A stretch of DNA of 64,000 nucleotides from Patescibacteria group bacterium (GCA_030916945.1 JAUPVS010000002.1:10688-74687), one strand, 5' to 3'; shown: positions 10,033 through 56,546, counted from the first letter of the stretch. Notes: generated by a model not told the origin, from the sequence alone. Numbers and translations: made by a program.

Positions 10033-11943
10033 CTATACCTGTGGTGGCATCAGAGGTGGTGGGACTGGTGGTGGCGCACCTGGTGTGCTGTCACCGGCCG
10101 TCCGATCAACTGGCTGGGATGGTGGCAATAAACTAGGTGGGATGTCGGTTGAAGGAGACAGATTTGGGTTCACACCATTCATATCGGCCGGGGCGCCAAA
10201 AGGCGTTGTCGTGCTAGGCTGGGTCGGTGTTGGCAACGGTACTCCCGCAGGGGTTGGCGTTGGTGGCAGACCTGGGTTGGGCGCGAATGGTTCTGGACTT
10301 GGCGGCGAAGTTGGTGCCGGTGTTGGCGCAAACGCTGGGTTTGGCGGCGTTGTGGCCGGCGCGGCATAGTTATTGCCCAAATTCAGGTTAACTGGCTGAG
10401 CGCCGAGGGCTTCGATGGGAGCCAGTGGTTGGCTAGGCGCTTCTGAAGCGATGGCCACATCAACTGCTTCTCGGGCATCGTCAATAACTTCTTCTTTGGT
10501 TTCGACGTCCGGCACAGCTGCGTTACCAGCTGCTGGGGCGGCGTGAGGGCTACCAACCGATGATTCAAGATTACTAAGAGTCGGTAATGGGTTGGACTGC
10601 TGGATAGGCGTTCCAGCCATGTTGCTCGGCCTATTTAACAGTGGTGGCAATGGGTTATTATCAACTGCCGGGAGGCTCAACGGATCGGTCGAGGGCTCTT
10701 TTTGCAGATGTTCAGGCTGACTGTTGGCCGTGAACTGACCACCCATCACAGGCGGCTGCAGAGCCATTGTATTAGGATTTGAGCCCAAGTCGGACGGCGC
10801 CAAGCGCGGTGTGCGATCGTTGGCTTTGCTAATTGCCGAGTGTGATATTAGCGGAGACTGCGCCTGGTCTACCGGCTTTGCCCCTTCTTCGAGCGGCTGC
10901 ACCGGTGTTGCCAAAGGCTCCGAATCAAGTGGCTTACCCAACATCCCCGAGGCGTTCACATCGAGTGGCTCAGATTCTTCGGGAGTTTCGGTTTCTTTAG
11001 GGGATTCTTCTGCTGCAACCTCTTCTGAAACGTCTTCAGAAACTTCTTCCTTGTCGTCTTCACTGCCCTGATGTTCTATCTGTAATTCGCCAGTGGCAAC
11101 TTTTTCGGGAGTTGGCTCATCGCTTTCGGTTACGGGGGCTGGTTTTTCGTTAGCAACTTCGAGTTTGCTGGCAATCAGTTGCTGGTTAGCGCCGACACTC
11201 ATAAGCTCGGCTGACAAAGTCATGGTACGAGGGCTGGTCTTGGCATTGCTAAAGCGATCGGTTTCGGCCACGATTCCAGTCATAAAGGCGGTAGCCATCT
11301 GGGCATCGAGTGGGTTGGGCGAAAGACCTTTAGCCAGCTCTACCAACATTTCTGACAAGCTACTGGCCGTTATATCGATCCAGTTAATCGCTCCGAGTTC
11401 GCCCTGGTCTTTGTTATTAACAGAGATGACGGTGGCATCGTGCAGAATCCGGCCATGGGCTGTAATCGCCTGGTCAAGCTCGGTGCGTTCATGCACGCCC
11501 AGCGCCACAACGGCATCGACATTAAAGTCACCCTGACTAAAGTCGAGGTCTTTGTCGCTCAAGCTGGTGCGGTAAGGCGTAATAAAGATCTTAACAACCT
11601 TGTCTTCTACCTTATAGCGCAGCTTATCAGCCTTGGCTTTATCTAAAGCAATAATGAAGTCGCGCAAGCTGTCGGTGTTCTTTTCGATGGTATCGTCGGG
11701 TTTTAAGAACTCGATAGTAGAAGGAATGGTGCCACTAAAAACAGCCGTACCGTGCTTGCCGAGATGGTTCAATAACAGAGTAAAACCGATACAAGCCGCT
11801 AGCTGGTCAACCGATGGGTTGTTACTAACTGTAACCAGTACATTATTTGCCTCTTTAAGGCGTTCAATGATTTGTTGTCGGGCGTTTTGGTCCATAAATG
11901 GTTTTTTATTTTTAGATAACTCTGTTGAAAATCGTATCATCAA
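10033..11943 (-). CDS. NrnA-like DHH-family domain protein with degenerate catalytic motifs and ~370-aa Pro/Thr/Ala-rich C-terminal tail
   Basis: The N-terminal ~260 aa align by eye to B. subtilis NrnA (DITASSLSEMLVEL and GIVAETDRF blocks are conserved). The metal-binding motifs are replaced: DPD by SVD and DHH by VHE. No DHHA1/GGGH domain is present. The rest is low-complexity proline-rich sequence. Confidence 0.7.
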   Translation of the reverse strand: MMIRFSTELSKNKKPFMDQNARQQIIERLKEANNVLVTVSNNPSVDQLAACIGFTLLLNHLGKHGTAVFSGTIPSTIEFLKPDDTIEKNTDSLRDFIIALDKAKADKLRYKVEDKVVKIFITPYRTSLSDKDLDFSQGDFNVDAVVALGVHERTELDQAITAHGRILHDATVISVNNKDQGELGAINWIDITASSLSEMLVELAKGLSPNPLDAQMATAFMTGIVAETDRFSNAKTSPRTMTLSAELMSVGANQQLIASKLEVANEKPAPVTESDEPTPEKVATGELQIEHQGSEDDKEEVSEDVSEEVAAEESPKETETPEESEPLDVNASGMLGKPLDSEPLATPVQPLEEGAKPVDQAQSPLISHSAISKANDRTPRLAPSDLGSNPNTMALQPPVMGGQFTANSQPEHLQKEPSTDPLSLPAVDNNPLPPLLNRPSNMAGTPIQQSNPLPTLSNLESSVGSPHAAPAAGNAAVPDVETKEEVIDDAREAVDVAIASEAPSQPLAPIEALGAQPVNLNLGNNYAAPATTPPNPAFAPTPAPTSPPSPEPFAPNPGLPPTPTPAGVPLPTPTQPSTTTPFGAPADMNGVNPNLSPSTDIPPSLLPPSQPVDRTAGDSTPGAPPPVPPPLMPPQV

Positions 11944-33136: not shown

Positions 33137-33826
33137 TTAGCGCCTGGCTTCGTGGCTGTTCTGCCGAGCCAGCCGAACTAGCTGATAGCCAACCGCATAA
33201 ATACTCGTCAGCAAGGCAAAGAACATAAGCGTAGTGGTAAAGACCTGCGGGTGACTCGACGGGTTAACAAAGGGCTCCGAAACATCAAAGATCAGTCCAA
33301 ACGGATTCAGGATAATATCCCAGCTGTTCCAGCGCAGATAGCGCCCGAGGTAAATTGCAAAACTGCACAGTAGTAACACTAACCCGGCCAAGAAGTGGGC
33401 GACGTTGCGTCCCAAGGTTTGGCGTAGCCTGGCGTGGATACCATACAAACTGACATAGCCTAAAATGAAGCCGTTGAACATGAACGAAATAAACATCGTG
33501 ACGTCGTATAGCAGGCTGATGTCACCGGTGGCACGCAGATGAATCATGTCACTGGCAATGTAAAAGGCATTGGGTAGAAAGGCCAGCCATAGCACTGTTA
33601 ATAAAAGGTTCGTCCAGTGATGCCAGCGTGTCTTGCCAAGACGAGCCAGTAGCCACCAGGCAAACGCCAAAGGAAGCCAGGCCAGTGCCAAATTCCAAGC
33701 TAAGAACCAGTAGGTCCAGGTTTGTGTCGCCAAAATACGCACCAATAGGAAGCCTAAACTAACGGCACTTGAAGCCATCAAGGTTAGCAAGAGCTGGTCG
33801 CGTGACGTTCGTGTAGTAGCTCCCAT
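33137..33826 (-). CDS. hypothetical integral membrane protein (Trp-rich, ~6 TM)
   Basis: 229 aa, almost entirely hydrophobic, with repeated W-rich helices. No catalytic motif recognised. Confidence 0.45.
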   Translation of the reverse strand: MGATTRTSRDQLLLTLMASSAVSLGFLLVRILATQTWTYWFLAWNLALAWLPLAFAWWLLARLGKTRWHHWTNLLLTVLWLAFLPNAFYIASDMIHLRATGDISLLYDVTMFISFMFNGFILGYVSLYGIHARLRQTLGRNVAHFLAGLVLLLCSFAIYLGRYLRWNSWDIILNPFGLIFDVSEPFVNPSSHPQVFTTTLMFFALLTSIYAVGYQLVRLARQNSHEARR

Positions 33827-33863
33827 ACTCTCCTATTATAGCAAGTGGGTTATAATATAGCCG

Positions 33864-34496
33864 ATGCAACCACTCTACAACCTACTCGACAGTTGTCGAA
33901 AATTGGTCCAGCGCGGCGCTTTGGCCGTTGCCAAGCTATTAAATAAACTTAGCGGCGGTAAACTTTCGCCCAACGCTGTTACCTTGTTTGGCTTTGCCAT
34001 GCACCTACCAATTGCCCTGCTAATTGCCCGTGGTTACTTTATATACGCCGGCTTATTCCTGATTATTTTTGGCTTATTTGACACCCTAGACGGTCAGTTA
34101 GCTCGCCTCCAAGGACGGGCCAGTAACCTCGGCATGTTCTTAGACTCGGTCACCGACCGCATGAAAGAAGCCTTGCTCTATATTGGAATTGCCTACTTCT
34201 TTGTATGGTCCGGCCAGCCCAACATGGCAGTTTGGGCAGTGGTGGCTTGTGGTGCCGGTTTACTGGTTAGCTACATTAACGCTTGGGGCGAAGTTGTTAC
34301 TAAAGACATAGAGAATGAACGCCACCAAACCAACAAGGTCTTTCGTGGCGGCATTATGAGTTTTGATGTTCGAATGTTCGTGATTATTGTTGGTCTACTC
34401 TTTAATCAGCTACCCGTTGCCATAGTTGTGATTGCTCTCCTGGCCTGGGTTACAGCCCTACAAAGAGTTCGAATGGTAATGCAGAAACTCCGCTAG
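33864..34496 (+). CDS. CDP-alcohol phosphatidyltransferase family protein (PgsA-like)
   Basis: DTLDGQLAR...GMFLDSVTDR matches the D-G-x2-A-R...D-x3-D signature of CDP-alcohol phosphatidyltransferases. Multi-TM. Confidence 0.75.
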   Translation: MQPLYNLLDSCRKLVQRGALAVAKLLNKLSGGKLSPNAVTLFGFAMHLPIALLIARGYFIYAGLFLIIFGLFDTLDGQLARLQGRASNLGMFLDSVTDRMKEALLYIGIAYFFVWSGQPNMAVWAVVACGAGLLVSYINAWGEVVTKDIENERHQTNKVFRGGIMSFDVRMFVIIVGLLFNQLPVAIVVIALLAWVTALQRVRMVMQKLR

Positions 34497-34498
34497 CC

Positions 34499-35152
34499 AT
34501 GCTTAAAATTGATCTTCACACCCACTCAATCGCATCAGACGACGGCGGCATCACCCCCCGCCAATACCAGCACTTGCTGGACAGTGGCCATCTAGACTTT
34601 ATTGCCGTGACCGACCACAACCAGATAGCGCTAGCCCTGCAGTTAAGACAGGATCTTGGCAAACGCATTATCGTTGGCGAAGAGGTTATGACCCGCCAAG
34701 GCGAAATCATCGGCTTATTCCTAAAAAAGCCCGTTAAACCCGGGGTGACCGCCCTAGAAACTGTTAAGGCAATTCACGACCAGGGCGGCCTGGTATACAT
34801 CCCCCACCCTTTCGAAACCATTCGGCATGGCCTCCAAGCCGTCGTTCTGGACAGTTTAGCCGACTACATTGACATCATTGAGGTTCATAATGGTCGGGCA
34901 GTGGCTCAAAACCGCAGCACCGAGGCCTTGGTTTGGGCTAAGCGACATAATGTTCAGATGGCAGCCAGTAGCGACGCTCATACCGTGCGCGGCGTTGGTC
35001 ATACCTACACGGTCACCGACCAAGCCATTACTAAAGCCAATCTACTTGAAATGCTAGAGCAGGCCACGCTTTGTGCCGCCCGACCACCTCTAATAACATT
35101 GGCCGCACCTAAATATAATAAACTTCGAAAGAAACTGCAGAGGAAATCATGA
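34499..35152 (+). CDS. PHP-family metal-dependent phosphoesterase
   Basis: MLKIDLHTHSIASDDG N-terminal His motif plus downstream His clusters of the PHP fold. Start is 3 nt after the previous stop. Confidence 0.7.
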   Translation: MLKIDLHTHSIASDDGGITPRQYQHLLDSGHLDFIAVTDHNQIALALQLRQDLGKRIIVGEEVMTRQGEIIGLFLKKPVKPGVTALETVKAIHDQGGLVYIPHPFETIRHGLQAVVLDSLADYIDIIEVHNGRAVAQNRSTEALVWAKRHNVQMAASSDAHTVRGVGHTYTVTDQAITKANLLEMLEQATLCAARPPLITLAAPKYNKLRKKLQRKS

Positions 35153-35667
35153 GCTGGCTACAAGCGATTTTACTTTTTTTGCCGGCTGGTTTAGCCAACG
35201 CCACCCCGGTTATAGCCAATAAAATACCAGTCATCAAGAACTGGCAGACACCGATGGACTTTGGTATTAGCTGGCACGGCAAACGCCTGCTAGGCACCAA
35301 CAAAACTTGGCGGGGTGTTCTAACGGGTAGCTTAATCGGTGGTTTAACCGCCCTACTATTGTCACCGATCGTCGATTATCATAGTTCGTTGTGGGCTACT
35401 TTTGGGCTGGGCTTTATTATGGGCTTTGGCGCTCTGTTTGGAGACGCCGTCGAGAGTGCCATAAAACGCCGCCGCGGCATCCCGGCCGGCTCCAGCTGGT
35501 TCCCGTTTGATCAAACCGACTATATTATTGGCGGCCTACTATTCTTGTACCCCTGGATGCAGCTATCTGTGCAAACAATGGCTGTTATCATTGTCAGCTA
35601 TTTTGGTCTACACCTGGTTGTTGTCTATGTTGCCCACTCTCTAGGCATTAGAGACAAGCCAATCTAA
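35149..35667 (+). CDS. short CTP-transferase family 1 membrane cytidylyltransferase (CarS/DUF46-like, CdsA-related)
   Basis: 172 aa, ~5 TM. The C-terminal FGDAVESAIKRRRGIPAGS matches the CdsA/CarS GDxxES..KR..G.K box. N-terminal PAGLANATPV...KTWRG resembles CarS. ATGA overlap with the PHP gene. Confidence 0.55.
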   Translation: MSWLQAILLFLPAGLANATPVIANKIPVIKNWQTPMDFGISWHGKRLLGTNKTWRGVLTGSLIGGLTALLLSPIVDYHSSLWATFGLGFIMGFGALFGDAVESAIKRRRGIPAGSSWFPFDQTDYIIGGLLFLYPWMQLSVQTMAVIIVSYFGLHLVVVYVAHSLGIRDKPI

Positions 35668-36104
35668 GCTTCGCCGCGCTCTTTTTTGCGTTGTTCGGGC
35701 GTTTCGTCGGGGCGGGCATAGTCATCTTCTAAGCGCCAGGTGGTGCCCAGTTCGGGTGTCGATACTTCGATAATGTCACAGTCGGTCACACCAACCAAGC
35801 GGTGCTTCTGGCCCAGCTGGGTACTATAACCCTGTCCGGGTTGCAATACAGTTTCGATCAACTGACCGGTGTTGTCTTCCCAGATAACTTTAGCCTCACC
35901 GGCGTGGATAAACCAGCTTTCCTGTTTTTGGTCGTGAATCTGCAGACTTAGCTTAGCACCGGCCTTAATGTGCAGCAGCTTACCCATGTAAGGAGCGTCG
36001 GCAGGCACCCAATGCACCTCGTAGCCCCAAGGTTTATCGACTTTCTTGGCATACGGTTGGTTGCTAAATTGGCTGGGGTCAAAAATTGGCGCTTGGTCAC
36101 TCAT
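35664..36104 (-). CDS. cupin-domain protein (mannose-6-phosphate isomerase type-II-like cupin)
   Basis: KLLHIKAGAKLSLQIHDQKQESWFIHAGEAKV matches the cupin two-motif pattern. Overlaps the upstream PGI/PMI gene by 4 nt. Confidence 0.6.
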   Translation of the reverse strand: MSDQAPIFDPSQFSNQPYAKKVDKPWGYEVHWVPADAPYMGKLLHIKAGAKLSLQIHDQKQESWFIHAGEAKVIWEDNTGQLIETVLQPGQGYSTQLGQKHRLVGVTDCDIIEVSTPELGTTWRLEDDYARPDETPEQRKKERGEA

Positions 36105-37156
36105 GAGTCTAATGCTACCTTAAATTTCTCGACCAAATCAACCGGAGCTGGGTTTAGGCCGTTCAATAAAGCTAAATAGATACTAACAAAGTCGCCCAAC
36201 GCCGATGTCCACAGCACTTGCTCTAATACTGTGTCCCCTTTAGCCTGTACGGTAATTGGTTCTGGACGCATGCCAGAAAGTAAACGCGCACTGACTTCAA
36301 AGCGTTTCTGGACGCGCGGATGTTCAAAACTACTTCTTAAGTCAACCACAGTGTAAGGCTTGTCGGTCGGCTGCTTACTCCAGCCAATAAATTCATTGTG
36401 ATTGAACTCCGGTATCTGGTTTAGCCAAGCGACTTGCTTGGCGTTCTCGTTCACACTAATCTTCCACTTATAGGCCGCCGGATACAAATGTGGTCCAGCA
36501 TATACAACAACTGACTTCCCAATTAACTCTTGGGCGATTTGTTTGGCAAGATTATCTTTGACCGCAACATCAGGTCGCCAGGCAGCAACTTCACGGTTCA
36601 AAAACGACCCAGCTGCCTCAACGGTTTGGACGAAGTCCTTAGCCGCCACTACGCCTGACTTTTCTAGGGTTACTAACAAGGCCTTGAAGTTAGCCAGCAC
36701 AGCGTATCTAGGCTGAGCAGTCTTAGGAAGCTCCAATAACGGGTAATTCTTGGTTTGGGCGGCCTCTTTTAACTTGCCGCCACCAGTAATAATAACGATC
36801 TGTGAACCTTTCTGTTCGGCCTGGGCCAGAGCCGATAAGGTCTCTTCGGTATTGCCCGAGTAGCTAGCGCAAATAACCAGTGTTCTTTCGTTAACGTAGT
36901 GAGGTAGGTCGTAATCACGTACTACCTGAAATGGCACAGTCACCGGTGGCCAGGTTTGGGCCAGCAAGGCAGCCAGGGCCGACCCGCCCATGCCGGCATA
37001 GACAATATTTTGAATCGGCTGAAAGGCAGTTGCGCCCGATAAACTAAAGGCCTGGGCCAGCTGTTGGCCTTGCTTTTCAACAATTCCCAGGGCATCTTCA
37101 ACATCACGTTCATGAATATAGGCAAGATCGTCTAACATACGCTGCACAGCCTCCAA
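36101..37156 (-). CDS. bifunctional phosphoglucose/phosphomannose isomerase (archaeal-type, SIS domain)
   Basis: SIS-domain GMGGSALAALL motif, a second SIS repeat, and the size and arrangement typical of PGI/PMI family enzymes. Confidence 0.7.
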   Translation of the reverse strand: MEAVQRMLDDLAYIHERDVEDALGIVEKQGQQLAQAFSLSGATAFQPIQNIVYAGMGGSALAALLAQTWPPVTVPFQVVRDYDLPHYVNERTLVICASYSGNTEETLSALAQAEQKGSQIVIITGGGKLKEAAQTKNYPLLELPKTAQPRYAVLANFKALLVTLEKSGVVAAKDFVQTVEAAGSFLNREVAAWRPDVAVKDNLAKQIAQELIGKSVVVYAGPHLYPAAYKWKISVNENAKQVAWLNQIPEFNHNEFIGWSKQPTDKPYTVVDLRSSFEHPRVQKRFEVSARLLSGMRPEPITVQAKGDTVLEQVLWTSALGDFVSIYLALLNGLNPAPVDLVEKFKVALDS

Positions 37157-55886: not shown

Positions 55887-56546
55887 TTAAAGACCTCCTG
55901 GAACAATCCATTGTAAGAAACCGTATAGGAACATATAGGCAACCAGAGCAAAAATCGCATTACGGATTCGGTTCTTGGCCTTGCCAATCCGCTGCGGGTC
56001 GCCACCGGCGGTGGTGTACTGGATTCCAGCGATAATAATAACAATAATCACAATCAGGCCAATGCTACCGGACAAGATATTGATGGCTACGTTGACGTTC
56101 TCGATGATACAGTTGTCGCTACTGGTAACCTCCTTGCCGTTACACTGAGTACCGTTAAAGCTGGGGTCGGCTTGAATATCCTCTTTGTTGCTAAACGGCA
56201 GGTTAGTTTTAACAGGGTTGCCGGCTTTACCGTCGGTTGGCTGCAAAATTCCTCGTTTAGGGTCTGGCGGGCTGTCGCAGCCAACTTTAACGGGTGGGCT
56301 TGGCCCAAAGCCGGTTGCCCAACTGTAATAGCAACCGTCAGCGGCCGGGTCGAGGCTCGGGTATACGGTTTTTAAGACTTCGCAGTCTATCTTGGCAAAG
56401 CCCGGAGAAGACGGGGCATAACTATAACAACCAGGATCATTGGCAGCCAAAGCTGTACCTTGTAGCCCAAATAACATGCCAGCCATAAATAGAACAGCCA
56501 TAATAAACTTGCTGGTATTGGTTTTTAGGTTGGGTAGTTTCTTCAT
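55887..56546 (-). CDS. VirB2/TrbC-like T4SS pilin-family protein, paralog 6 (long form with Cys-rich extracellular region)
   Basis: 219 aa. Signal peptide, a ~110-aa Cys/Pro/Gly-rich region, then INILSGSIGLIVIIVIIIAGIQYTTAGGDPQRIGKAKNRIRNAIFALVAYMFLYGFL. Confidence 0.5.
   Translation of the reverse strand: MKKLPNLKTNTSKFIMAVLFMAGMLFGLQGTALAANDPGCYSYAPSSPGFAKIDCEVLKTVYPSLDPAADGCYYSWATGFGPSPPVKVGCDSPPDPKRGILQPTDGKAGNPVKTNLPFSNKEDIQADPSFNGTQCNGKEVTSSDNCIIENVNVAINILSGSIGLIVIIVIIIAGIQYTTAGGDPQRIGKAKNRIRNAIFALVAYMFLYGFLQWIVPGGL

Follow-up and report, generated by a model that had tools for sequence, protein, structure and literature searches.

A conserved three-gene operon of Saccharibacteria that probably encodes a headgroup module for an inositol phospholipid

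A compact operon encoding, in 5'-to-3' order, a CDP-alcohol phosphatidyltransferase, a PHP-family phosphoesterase, and a CarS-type cytidylyltransferase was found in a 64,000-nucleotide stretch of DNA (here called the window) from a Patescibacteria group bacterium (GCA_030916945.1 JAUPVS010000002.1:10688-74687). The host is a Saccharibacterium, an ultrasmall parasitic bacterium that belongs to the candidate phyla radiation (CPR; Patescibacteria). The operon is probably a headgroup module for an inositol phospholipid, that is, a two-step prokaryotic phosphatidylinositol (PI) route put together from unusual parts. A prediction previously made from the sequence alone (the original prediction) had placed three overlapping or abutting plus-strand genes here, and this layout was recovered, with a 2-bp gap between genes 1 and 2 and a 4-bp overlap (ATGA) between genes 2 and 3. 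Genes 1 and 3 encode membrane proteins, and no hydrophobic segment was found in the PHP protein.

33864-34496, plus strand: gene 1, class I CDP-alcohol phosphatidyltransferase, multi-pass membrane protein, 210 amino acids (PF01066 and the inositol-phosphate transferase models described below)
34499-35152, plus strand: gene 2, soluble PHP-family metal-dependent phosphoesterase with a polybasic C-terminal helix, 217 amino acids (PHP_C and motifs)
35149-35667, plus strand: gene 3, CarS-type five-helix CTP:lipid-phosphate cytidylyltransferase, 172 amino acids (PF01864 and fold)

The first step of the proposed route would be the conversion of a lipid phosphate to a CDP-lipid with CTP by the CarS-type enzyme, as suggested by its family, fold, and catalytic box; the substrate is most likely phosphatidic acid (PA) from a scavenged diacylglycerol-type lipid. 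In the second step, the transferase would join the lipid phosphate to L-myo-inositol-1-phosphate, producing phosphatidylinositol phosphate (PIP) and CMP, a reaction to which hidden Markov model classification, conserved acceptor-site residues, and the operon linkage of orthologues to inositol-1-phosphate synthase (MIPS) all point. The PHP protein would then take off the terminal phosphate to leave PI, a role proposed solely from gene position, metal site, and a membrane-seeking basic tail. In related Saccharibacteria, MIPS with a LysR regulator would provide the acceptor and a diacylglycerol (DAG)-kinase-family kinase would provide the lipid phosphate, so that a salvage route from DAG through PA, CDP-DAG, and PIP to PI is plausible in organisms that, like the CPR bacteria, are unable to make fatty acids. 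The original prediction had already proposed the three-step logic of activation, headgroup-phosphate transfer, and dephosphorylation by the PHP enzyme, as well as the idea that a lipid-scavenging organism re-headgroups what it acquires, and our reading of the sequences agrees with both.

Gene 1 belongs to the Pfam family CDP-OH_P_transf (PF01066; E value, 7.7e-16; 59.3 bits; cut-off, 22). Its class I signature, D(x)2DG(x)2AR(x)8G(x)3D(x)3D, the hallmark of class I CDP-alcohol phosphotransferases in transmembrane helices 2 and 3 (TM2-TM3), is complete (D73, D76, G77, A80, R81, G90, D94, and D98) and is invariant or almost so among 61 orthologues. The highest-scoring NCBIfam models were archaetidylinositol-phosphate synthase (AIPS; 104.9 bits; 4.5e-30) and phosphatidylinositol-phosphate synthase (PIPS; 88.3 bits; 5.1e-25), followed by the Bacteroides-type PIPS of the BT_1523 type (64 bits), di-myo-inositol-phosphate-phosphate synthase (DIPPS; 55 bits), pssA (26 bits), and ClsA (25 bits). 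The phosphatidylglycerophosphate (PGP) synthase model pgsA (TIGR00560) gave 21.1 bits (3.5e-4) and did not reach its cut-off of 109. All 28 aligned members of the transferase family matched the AIPS, PIPS, and DIPPS models, and AIPS and PIPS were the best-scoring models for every one of them, none reaching the cut-off; pgsA was matched by 10 of the 28. Searched against the PDB, the family profile was closest to MtPgsA1, the PIPS of Mycobacterium tuberculosis (MtPIPS; 3e-19), MkPIPS (8e-19), AF2299 (3e-16), and RsPIPS (1e-15), with weaker matches to DIPPS (3e-12), PssA (7e-5), and SaPgsA (1.2e-3). With the single sequence of gene 1, AF2299 was the top match and SaPgsA (7drj) was found at an E value of 0.035.

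It has been shown by mutagenesis that R153 and R191 of RsPIPS, equivalent to R155 and R195 of MtPIPS, bind the phosphate of inositol phosphate, with contributions from S132 and K135 (Clarke 2015, PMC4634129). Direct alignment placed S136 of gene 1 on MtPIPS S132 and R201 on MtPIPS R195, and R170, the second arginine of an RxxR motif, was aligned with MtPIPS R155 via MkPIPS and AF2299. Among the 61 orthologues, both R170 and R201 are kept in 60 and S136 is kept in 59. The single orthologue without the two arginines is a WWE3 outlier whose best model is pgsA, and it serves as an internal control.

The gene neighborhoods of orthologous operons point to the same acceptor. MIPS (PF01658; 3e-35) flanks the triad in five loci, and the linked protein matches M. 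tuberculosis Ino1 (1GR0) over its full length (1.9e-130; 438 bits). In locus L039, the order is MIPS-transferase-PHP-CarS, with the MIPS stop codon directly before the transferase start, and L061 has the same order (MIPS at 3506-4717 in L039 and at 3572-4705 in L061). In L040, L047, and L051, MIPS lies just downstream of the triad on the opposite strand. The linked MIPS always has a LysR regulator oriented divergently from it. Given the closeness of this MIPS to Ino1 and the parasitism of cultured Saccharibacteria on Actinobacteria, the gene may have been gained from actinobacterial hosts. Since the AIPS and PIPS ranking, the kept arginines, and the MIPS linkage agree, inositol-1-phosphate is by far the likeliest acceptor, and on these sequence comparisons the headgroup acceptor is almost certainly an inositol phosphate and not glycerol phosphate. 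Gene 1 itself would be a divergent member of the inositol-phosphate-acceptor clade, not a certified orthologue of a characterized enzyme.

The original prediction had named phosphatidylglycerol (PG) as the end product. In such a scheme, the CarS-like enzyme would make CDP-DAG, the transferase would act as a PgsA equivalent on glycerol-3-phosphate, and the PHP protein would replace PgpA/B/C. The scheme shares the three-step logic and leads to the commonest bacterial anionic lipid; the CDP-alcohol motif is generic, a weak pgsA match exists, and both arginines could in principle hold the phosphate of glycerol-3-phosphate. It is nevertheless improbable, and we do not retain PG as the product: the pgsA score falls far below those of AIPS and PIPS, the profile search matches SaPgsA 16 orders of magnitude more weakly than MtPIPS, the arginines are kept, and orthologues are linked to MIPS and not to glycerol-phosphate metabolism. 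Moreover, PG or cardiolipin could be the business of a second transferase (the c39 type, described below) that some genomes have next to the triad. A soluble product has also to be considered, with the transferase drawing on a soluble CDP-alcohol to make an osmolyte that resembles di-myo-inositol-phosphate or glycerophosphoinositol and the PHP protein dephosphorylating this product. AF2299, the top single-sequence match, and DIPPS, which is matched as well, both combine inositol-1-phosphate with a soluble CDP-alcohol donor (Clarke 2015, PMC4634129). We consider this very improbable, as the triad is without a soluble nucleotidyltransferase domain or gene, its conserved partner is an integral-membrane lipid cytidylyltransferase, the family profile ranks the lipid-dependent PIPS above AF2299 and DIPPS, and the linked kinase is a lipid kinase.

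That the three genes form a functional unit is indicated by their conservation. To assess synteny, seven window proteins were searched by tblastn against 80 genome loci, and all neighboring open reading frames (ORFs) were clustered. On the same strand and upstream of CarS, the transferase was found in 60 of the 80 loci and PHP in 61, and in 61 loci PHP is positioned between the two lipid genes. The full triad is present in at least 50 of the 80 loci at 40-57% identity, including the complete genome CP025011, with a median gap of -4 bp at both junctions. It is only in the closest 23-28 loci that the triad is flanked by arginyl-tRNA synthetase, DUF1361, and phosphoglucose isomerase (PGI) genes, the flanks being different in other clades; the retention of the triad while its outer flanks change is strong evidence that its members function together. 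The numbers of database homologues (823 for the CarS-like protein and 5765 for PHP), together with the conserved synteny, indicate real genes and not chance ORFs. The nearest relatives of the CarS-like gene are in metagenome-assembled genomes (MAGs) of Candidatus Saccharibacteria and Saccharimonadales, with a few from other CPR phyla, and the best 120 of the 5765 PHP homologues are all from close Saccharibacteria. PIF1 helicase, KwaB, RadC, MraW, CofD, IMP dehydrogenase, aminoacyl-tRNA synthetase, NYN, metallo-beta-lactamase, and aldo-keto reductase neighbors were set aside as unrelated housekeeping genes.

Gene 3 (CYTIDYLYLTRANSFERASE) matched the CarS-like family PF01864 over 167 of 175 positions (6.2e-30; 104.9 bits; cut-off, 22), and its match to PF01148, the CdsA family, was confined to 62 of 264 profile positions (169-230) in the catalytic core. 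The NCBIfam CdsA model NF008635 (PRK11624) gave 16 bits against a cut-off of 385, and the CarS model was matched by all 31 family members (best E value, 1e-43). The PDB sequence search returned ApCarS (5GUF; 1.5e-14) and no match to CdsA structures (TmCdsA). The AlphaFold model (pLDDT, 92) has five helices, and about nine transmembrane helices are expected of a CdsA. By Foldseek, the model superimposes on ApCarS 5GUF with TM scores of 0.75/0.82, an rmsd of 2.2 A, and 31% identity, and on TmCdsA 4Q2E with TM scores of 0.48/0.34. The GDxxES..KR..G box (G98, D99, E102, S103, K106, R107, and G110) and the CarS-like N terminus, FLPAGLANATPV, are both conserved family-wide, and the invariant residues are N17, D37, K52, R55, G98-D99, S103, K106-R107, and W117-F-P-F-D-Q-x-D124. 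Family and modeled fold thus support the assignment of gene 3 as an archaeal-type CarS and not a CdsA. The box, the N terminus, the five-helix architecture, and the archaeal form had all been noted in the original prediction, and its calls for the other two genes, CDP-alcohol transferase and PHP protein, hold as well.

Which lipid the enzyme activates is suggested by further neighbors. A DAGK_cat (PF00781) lipid kinase with 370 homologues, named diacylglycerol kinase family by both NCBI and JGI, accompanies the triad in five loci, in line in L055 (kinase-transferase-PHP-CarS) and adjacent in L032, L035, L040, and L051. Fusions of a CDP-alcohol transferase with DAGK_cat were found in at least 13 Saccharimonadales protein clusters (approximately 530-554 amino acids; P0280-P0352). 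The fused transferase is of a second, divergent type, c39, with the motif DxxDGxxADR..G...D...D; in L032, L035, and L047 it is also encoded on its own next to the triad, and JGI names this type PGP synthase. The fusion gene stands head-to-head with the triad in the independent contigs L081-L084 (5401-7035 in L081 and 9001-10653 in L082). This adjacency and fusion place the triad in a diacylglycerol/phosphatidate context and suggest that the CarS-type enzyme feeds CDP-lipid to more than one transferase.

An isoprenoid lipid had been hinted at in the original prediction, and the triad can be read as an archaeal-type pathway in a bacterium, with CDP-archaeol or another CDP-isoprenoid ether lipid, an AIPS, and the PHP protein as archaetidylinositol-phosphate (AIP) phosphatase. 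The best NCBIfam models are archaeal (AIPS ahead of PIPS, and a 127.5-bit match to the CarS equivalog model), the fold is almost identical to that of ApCarS, and characterized CarS favors digeranylgeranylglyceryl phosphate (DGGGP) over PA. A short-chain-type polyprenyl synthase is also present within the window at 19156-20223 on the minus strand, where it had been predicted as a geranylgeranyl diphosphate-type enzyme (PF00348; 9e-52, a match that gives no chain length). This synthase, however, lies beside polA, 14 kb from the operon on the other strand, and the peptidoglycan lipid carrier calls for such an enzyme in any case. The annotated part of the window and of approximately 1 Mb of related loci showed no geranylgeranylglyceryl phosphate synthase (GGGPS), DGGGP synthase (DGGGPS), or glycerol-1-phosphate dehydrogenase, and the linked kinase is of the DAG kinase family, which together favor a diacyl-type over an isoprenoid lipid. 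Cultured Saccharibacteria live on Actinobacteria, which are diacyl-lipid organisms, and one Saccharibacterial genome was reported to be without an isopentenyl diphosphate pathway (Starr 2018, PMC6031116). We therefore regard the archaeal-type pathway as a whole as improbable; the activated lipid itself is probably of the diacyl type, and an isoprenoid lipid is unlikely. Apart from the triad and the polyprenyl synthase, the scanned set of window ORFs, those of at least 110 amino acids, yielded no lipid genes. The original prediction had seen no fatty-acid or glycerol-phosphate acyltransferase genes in the window.

CarS-like genes were also found directly after other kinds of CDP-alcohol transferases in WWE3, where the transferase is pgsA-like, and in Peribacteria (L079, 5413-6531; L080, 5396-6555), and CarS-type enzymes may be a general CDP-lipid synthase across several CPR phyla. 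A MAG labeled "archaeon" (SI047_bin43; L077, 5959-6507) contains a CarS-like gene 45% identical to that of the window and closer to it than many Saccharibacterial copies, with a Peptidase_C92 gene among its neighbors; mis-binning or gene exchange between CPR and DPANN may account for it. In three loci, a protein of approximately 490 amino acids (c40) with an N-terminal transmembrane helix and a large soluble domain is encoded between the lipid kinase and the triad (L040, 1052-2635; L047, 1-1267; L051, 3175-4635, minus strand), and no PDB sequence relatives of it were found.

Gene 2 matched PHP_C (1.5e-8; 34.5 bits; cut-off, 21.3) and, weakly and below its cut-off of 26.4, the Pfam PHP domain (1.6e-3; 19.2 bits). 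The metal-ligand residues H7, H9, D15, H40, E62, H103, D159, and H161 are invariant. The AlphaFold model (pLDDT, 94.7) ends in a helix (residues 198-216), LLYPKYNRLRKKL, and the last 20 residues average 6.5 K/R and 0.08 D/E among 62 orthologues; as modeled, such a basic helix would suit docking to an anionic membrane. Foldseek gave a probability of 1.0 against several PHP structures, the nearest being BVU_3505 and TM0559 (both uncharacterized), RNase AM, PsfC, and the 3'-phosphoadenosine 5'-phosphate (pAp) phosphatase Cv1693 (TM scores, 0.58-0.69; 16-25% identity), with no functional analogue among them. No match to a Pgp family (PgpA, PgpB/PAP2, or PgpC/HAD) was found in the Pfam and NCBIfam scans. 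Since the pathway chemistry requires a phosphatase and PHP has the position, the metal site, and the basic tail, it is a candidate for that step. We lean towards its being the phosphatase of the pathway, and this is the weakest link of the model. Where PHP is missing, phosphatases of the inositol monophosphatase (IMPase) superfamily lie directly upstream of CarS in four loci (L028, 50-1234; L033, 78-1061; L037, 1717-5440, with up to three copies; L048, 3166-4224), which looks like non-orthologous replacement of the phosphatase step. An Exo_endo_phos gene downstream of CarS in WWE3 locus L079 was considered as a third alternative phosphatase and dropped, its NCBIfam match being exonuclease III-like and the L079 transferase pgsA-like.

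The PHP protein might instead stand outside the lipid pathway as a co-transcribed phosphoesterase acting on nucleotides or RNA, similar to RNase AM or to a pAp phosphatase, or as a pyrophosphatase. Its closest solved relatives include RNase AM (7ug9 and 9etk) and Cv1693 (2yb1), a polybasic tail can bind RNA, approximately 10 loci have the transferase and CarS genes without PHP between them, and PHP homologues far exceed CarS-like homologues in number. On the other side, at least 50 loci spanning 40-60% sequence divergence have PHP placed between both membrane lipid genes, with stop and start codons that overlap, the similarity of PHP to RNase AM is weak (E values of approximately 1e-4 to 1e-7; TM score of approximately 0.58), and an IMPase-like phosphatase accompanies CarS in the four loci mentioned above. 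The chemistry of the pathway also calls for a phosphatase, which has yet to be identified in either Actinobacteria or Archaea. A role of PHP unrelated to the lipid genes is thus unlikely, if less so than a PG product or an archaeal-type pathway.

Several observations weigh against the inositol phospholipid reading. The scores of gene 1 are below the equivalog cut-offs (AIPS, 104.9 versus 180 bits, NF040950; PIPS, 88.3 versus 170 bits, NF045883), as is that of gene 3 with the CarS model (127.5 versus 148 bits, NF003114), and the sub-cut-off scores of all three proteins leave their exact specificities unproven. The window transferase has N139 where MtPIPS has K135; among the 61 orthologues the residue at this site is K in 46 and N in 12, the window included, and the MIPS-linked transferase of L039 carries N139 too. 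MIPS, the lipid kinase, and the second transferase are all absent from the 64-kb window, and the MIPS and kinase linkages, each found in 5 of the 80 loci, belong to another, though related, subclade with 42-52% identity. The DAGK_cat assignment is a 38-bit Pfam match plus the names given by the sources, with no PDB sequence match. For the phosphatase step, the nearest solved relatives of PHP include RNase AM and a pAp phosphatase, its basic helix could also bind nucleic acid, and the divergence of the IMPase-family neighbors precludes an assignment, since the best models for them (CysQ, HisN, and IMPase) score far under the cut-offs. Characterized CarS strongly prefers the isoprenoid DGGGP and does not complement an E. 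coli cdsA mutant (review PMC9385802), AfCarS being the archaeal enzyme that fails to rescue it; a CarS acting on diacyl PA would be a first for the family. Finally, the cultured oral Saccharibacterium S. epibionticum has no apparent entries for CarS-like, CdsA, PHP_C, or IMPase proteins, and its one CDP-alcohol transferase is non-essential. The seeming absence of the module there means that it is not essential to the phylum; we regard it as an accessory trait found in mostly environmental lineages with larger genomes.

Among known systems, the actinobacterial PI pathway (CdsA, PgsA1/PIP synthase, PIP phosphatase, and Ino1) has the same reaction logic as the triad. MtPgsA1 is the closest solved relative of gene 1 by profile and shares the two arginines and the serine, and Ino1 is very close to the MIPS linked to orthologous triads. 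The actinobacterial pathway, however, uses a CdsA-type enzyme in place of the 172-amino-acid, five-helix CarS type, and its phosphatase is described as unidentified, whereas the triad encodes a PHP phosphoesterase inside the operon. The triad transferase also falls below the PIPS equivalog cut-off, and the operon is without pimA or an acyltransferase. Archaeal CarS and AIPS provide the best-scoring curated models for genes 3 and 1, and the GD..S..KR...DQxD box is identical between archaeal CarS and gene 3. The triad differs from the archaeal system in its bacterial host, in the lack of any GGGPS or DGGGPS seen, in its linked DAG-kinase-family kinase, and in scores under both equivalog cut-offs; since characterized CarS uses PA inefficiently, the substrate of gene 3 may differ. 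A precedent for a phosphatase beside a PIP synthase is the Bacteroides cluster of BT_1526 (MIPS), BT_1523 (PIP synthase), and BT_1525 (a PgpA-like PIP phosphatase) (Heaver 2022, PMC9246714). The Bacteroides phosphatase is of the PgpA family and unrelated to the PHP family of the triad, the cluster is without a cytidylyltransferase, and the BT_1523-type model is only the third-best match to gene 1. Members of the PHP superfamily (RNase AM/TrpH, Cv1693, histidinol-phosphate phosphatase, TM0559, and BVU_3505) have the same distorted TIM barrel and trinuclear metal-ligand set as gene 2, which differs from them in its low similarity (16-25% identity; TM scores, 0.43-0.69), its unique polybasic C-terminal helix, and its lipid operon setting. 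We know of no PHP member that acts on a lipid headgroup, the literature searched included.

The PIP phosphatase has not been identified in Actinobacteria (Clarke 2015, PMC4634129), nor have PIP and AIP phosphatases been identified outside Bacteroides (review PMC9385802). Saccharibacteria were described as lacking fatty-acid synthesis, and for one genome, KEGG-style annotation led to the proposal that scavenged PA is converted to CDP-DAG and on to PGP, cardiolipin, or PI and PI mannosides (Starr 2018, PMC6031116). The mechanisms of lipid uptake and processing in CPR/Patescibacteria have not been identified (2024 perspective, PMC11665869), and the origin of CPR membrane lipids has been described as elusive (PMC7242380). 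Automated annotation already names the genes singly, as CDP-archaeol synthase and PHP domain-containing protein. The open-access literature that was searched held no account of the operon, of a CarS-type enzyme in CPR, of the PHP candidate, or of the kinase and MIPS linkage, an absence that is no proof, and nothing relevant on Saccharibacterial lipidomics.

The operon and the genes attached to it in relatives suggest a specific, testable route from a scavenged diacylglycerol-type lipid to PI, with PHP as a candidate for a PIP phosphatase. The operon also offers a natural test of whether CarS-type enzymes are confined to isoprenoid lipids, a question that matters in debates on the lipid divide. 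We propose only tentatively that PHP founds a new class of lipid-headgroup phosphatases and that, in addition, a CarS-family enzyme natively makes CDP-diacylglycerol in bacteria. If both were true, the split between CarS and CdsA would not track the archaeal/bacterial lipid divide, and this, taken with the DAG kinase and MIPS that are linked, would be the first concrete pathway of lipid salvage and re-headgrouping in CPR/Patescibacteria.

Two sequence signals bear on expression of the operon.

33851-33856, plus strand: possible -10 hexamer TATAAT, a consensus match read from the sequence, 7 nucleotides 5' of the first ATG
35140-35144, plus strand: Shine-Dalgarno-like GAGGA, 4 nucleotides 5' of the CarS start, within the 3' end of the PHP gene

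The hexamer has no matching -35 element and was not called by the promoter scan, and no Shine-Dalgarno sequence precedes the ATG of gene 1 (33851-33863). The closeness of TATAAT to the ATG and the missing Shine-Dalgarno sequence suggest a leaderless or near-leaderless transcript. GAGGA and the ATGA stop/start overlap suggest that the PHP and CarS genes are translationally coupled.

Upstream of the operon, 37 bp away and divergent from it, lies a gene for a DUF1361 multi-pass membrane protein (33137-33826, minus strand) whose position is kept in 23 related loci; a functional tie to the operon, e.g., in lipid handling, is possible. Downstream, a convergent operon (35664-37156, minus strand) encodes a small cupin resembling the C terminus of phosphomannose isomerase (PMI) and a bifunctional PGI/PMI, and overlaps the CarS stop by 4 bp. 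Glucose-6-phosphate, a product of PGI, is the substrate of MIPS, a connection that is thematic only. In 15 related loci, a PIG-L/MshB-like deacetylase gene is located between CarS and the PGI/cupin genes (e.g., L014, 6485-7222, minus strand). As a link to inositol glycolipids it was rejected as weak evidence, as it is a member of the convergent PGI/cupin operon and scores equally with BshB. The GT4/GT5 glycosyltransferase and GH57 genes downstream of the L081 triad were considered as PimA-like and not used, for they resemble alpha-glucan metabolism more.

Elsewhere in the window, the housekeeping genes are bacterial (DnaG, sigma-70, PolA, Mur ligase, GroEL, and tRNA synthetases). Three large ORFs have no Pfam match at an E value of 1e-3 or lower (21507-24812, minus strand, 1101 amino acids; 10033-11943, minus strand, 636 amino acids; 58375-60939, plus strand, 854 amino acids). 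A type IV secretion/conjugation-like set at 55887-61911, with a type IV secretion system pilin, a PrgI-family protein, and large ORFs without a Pfam match, is of a kind typical of Saccharibacteria.

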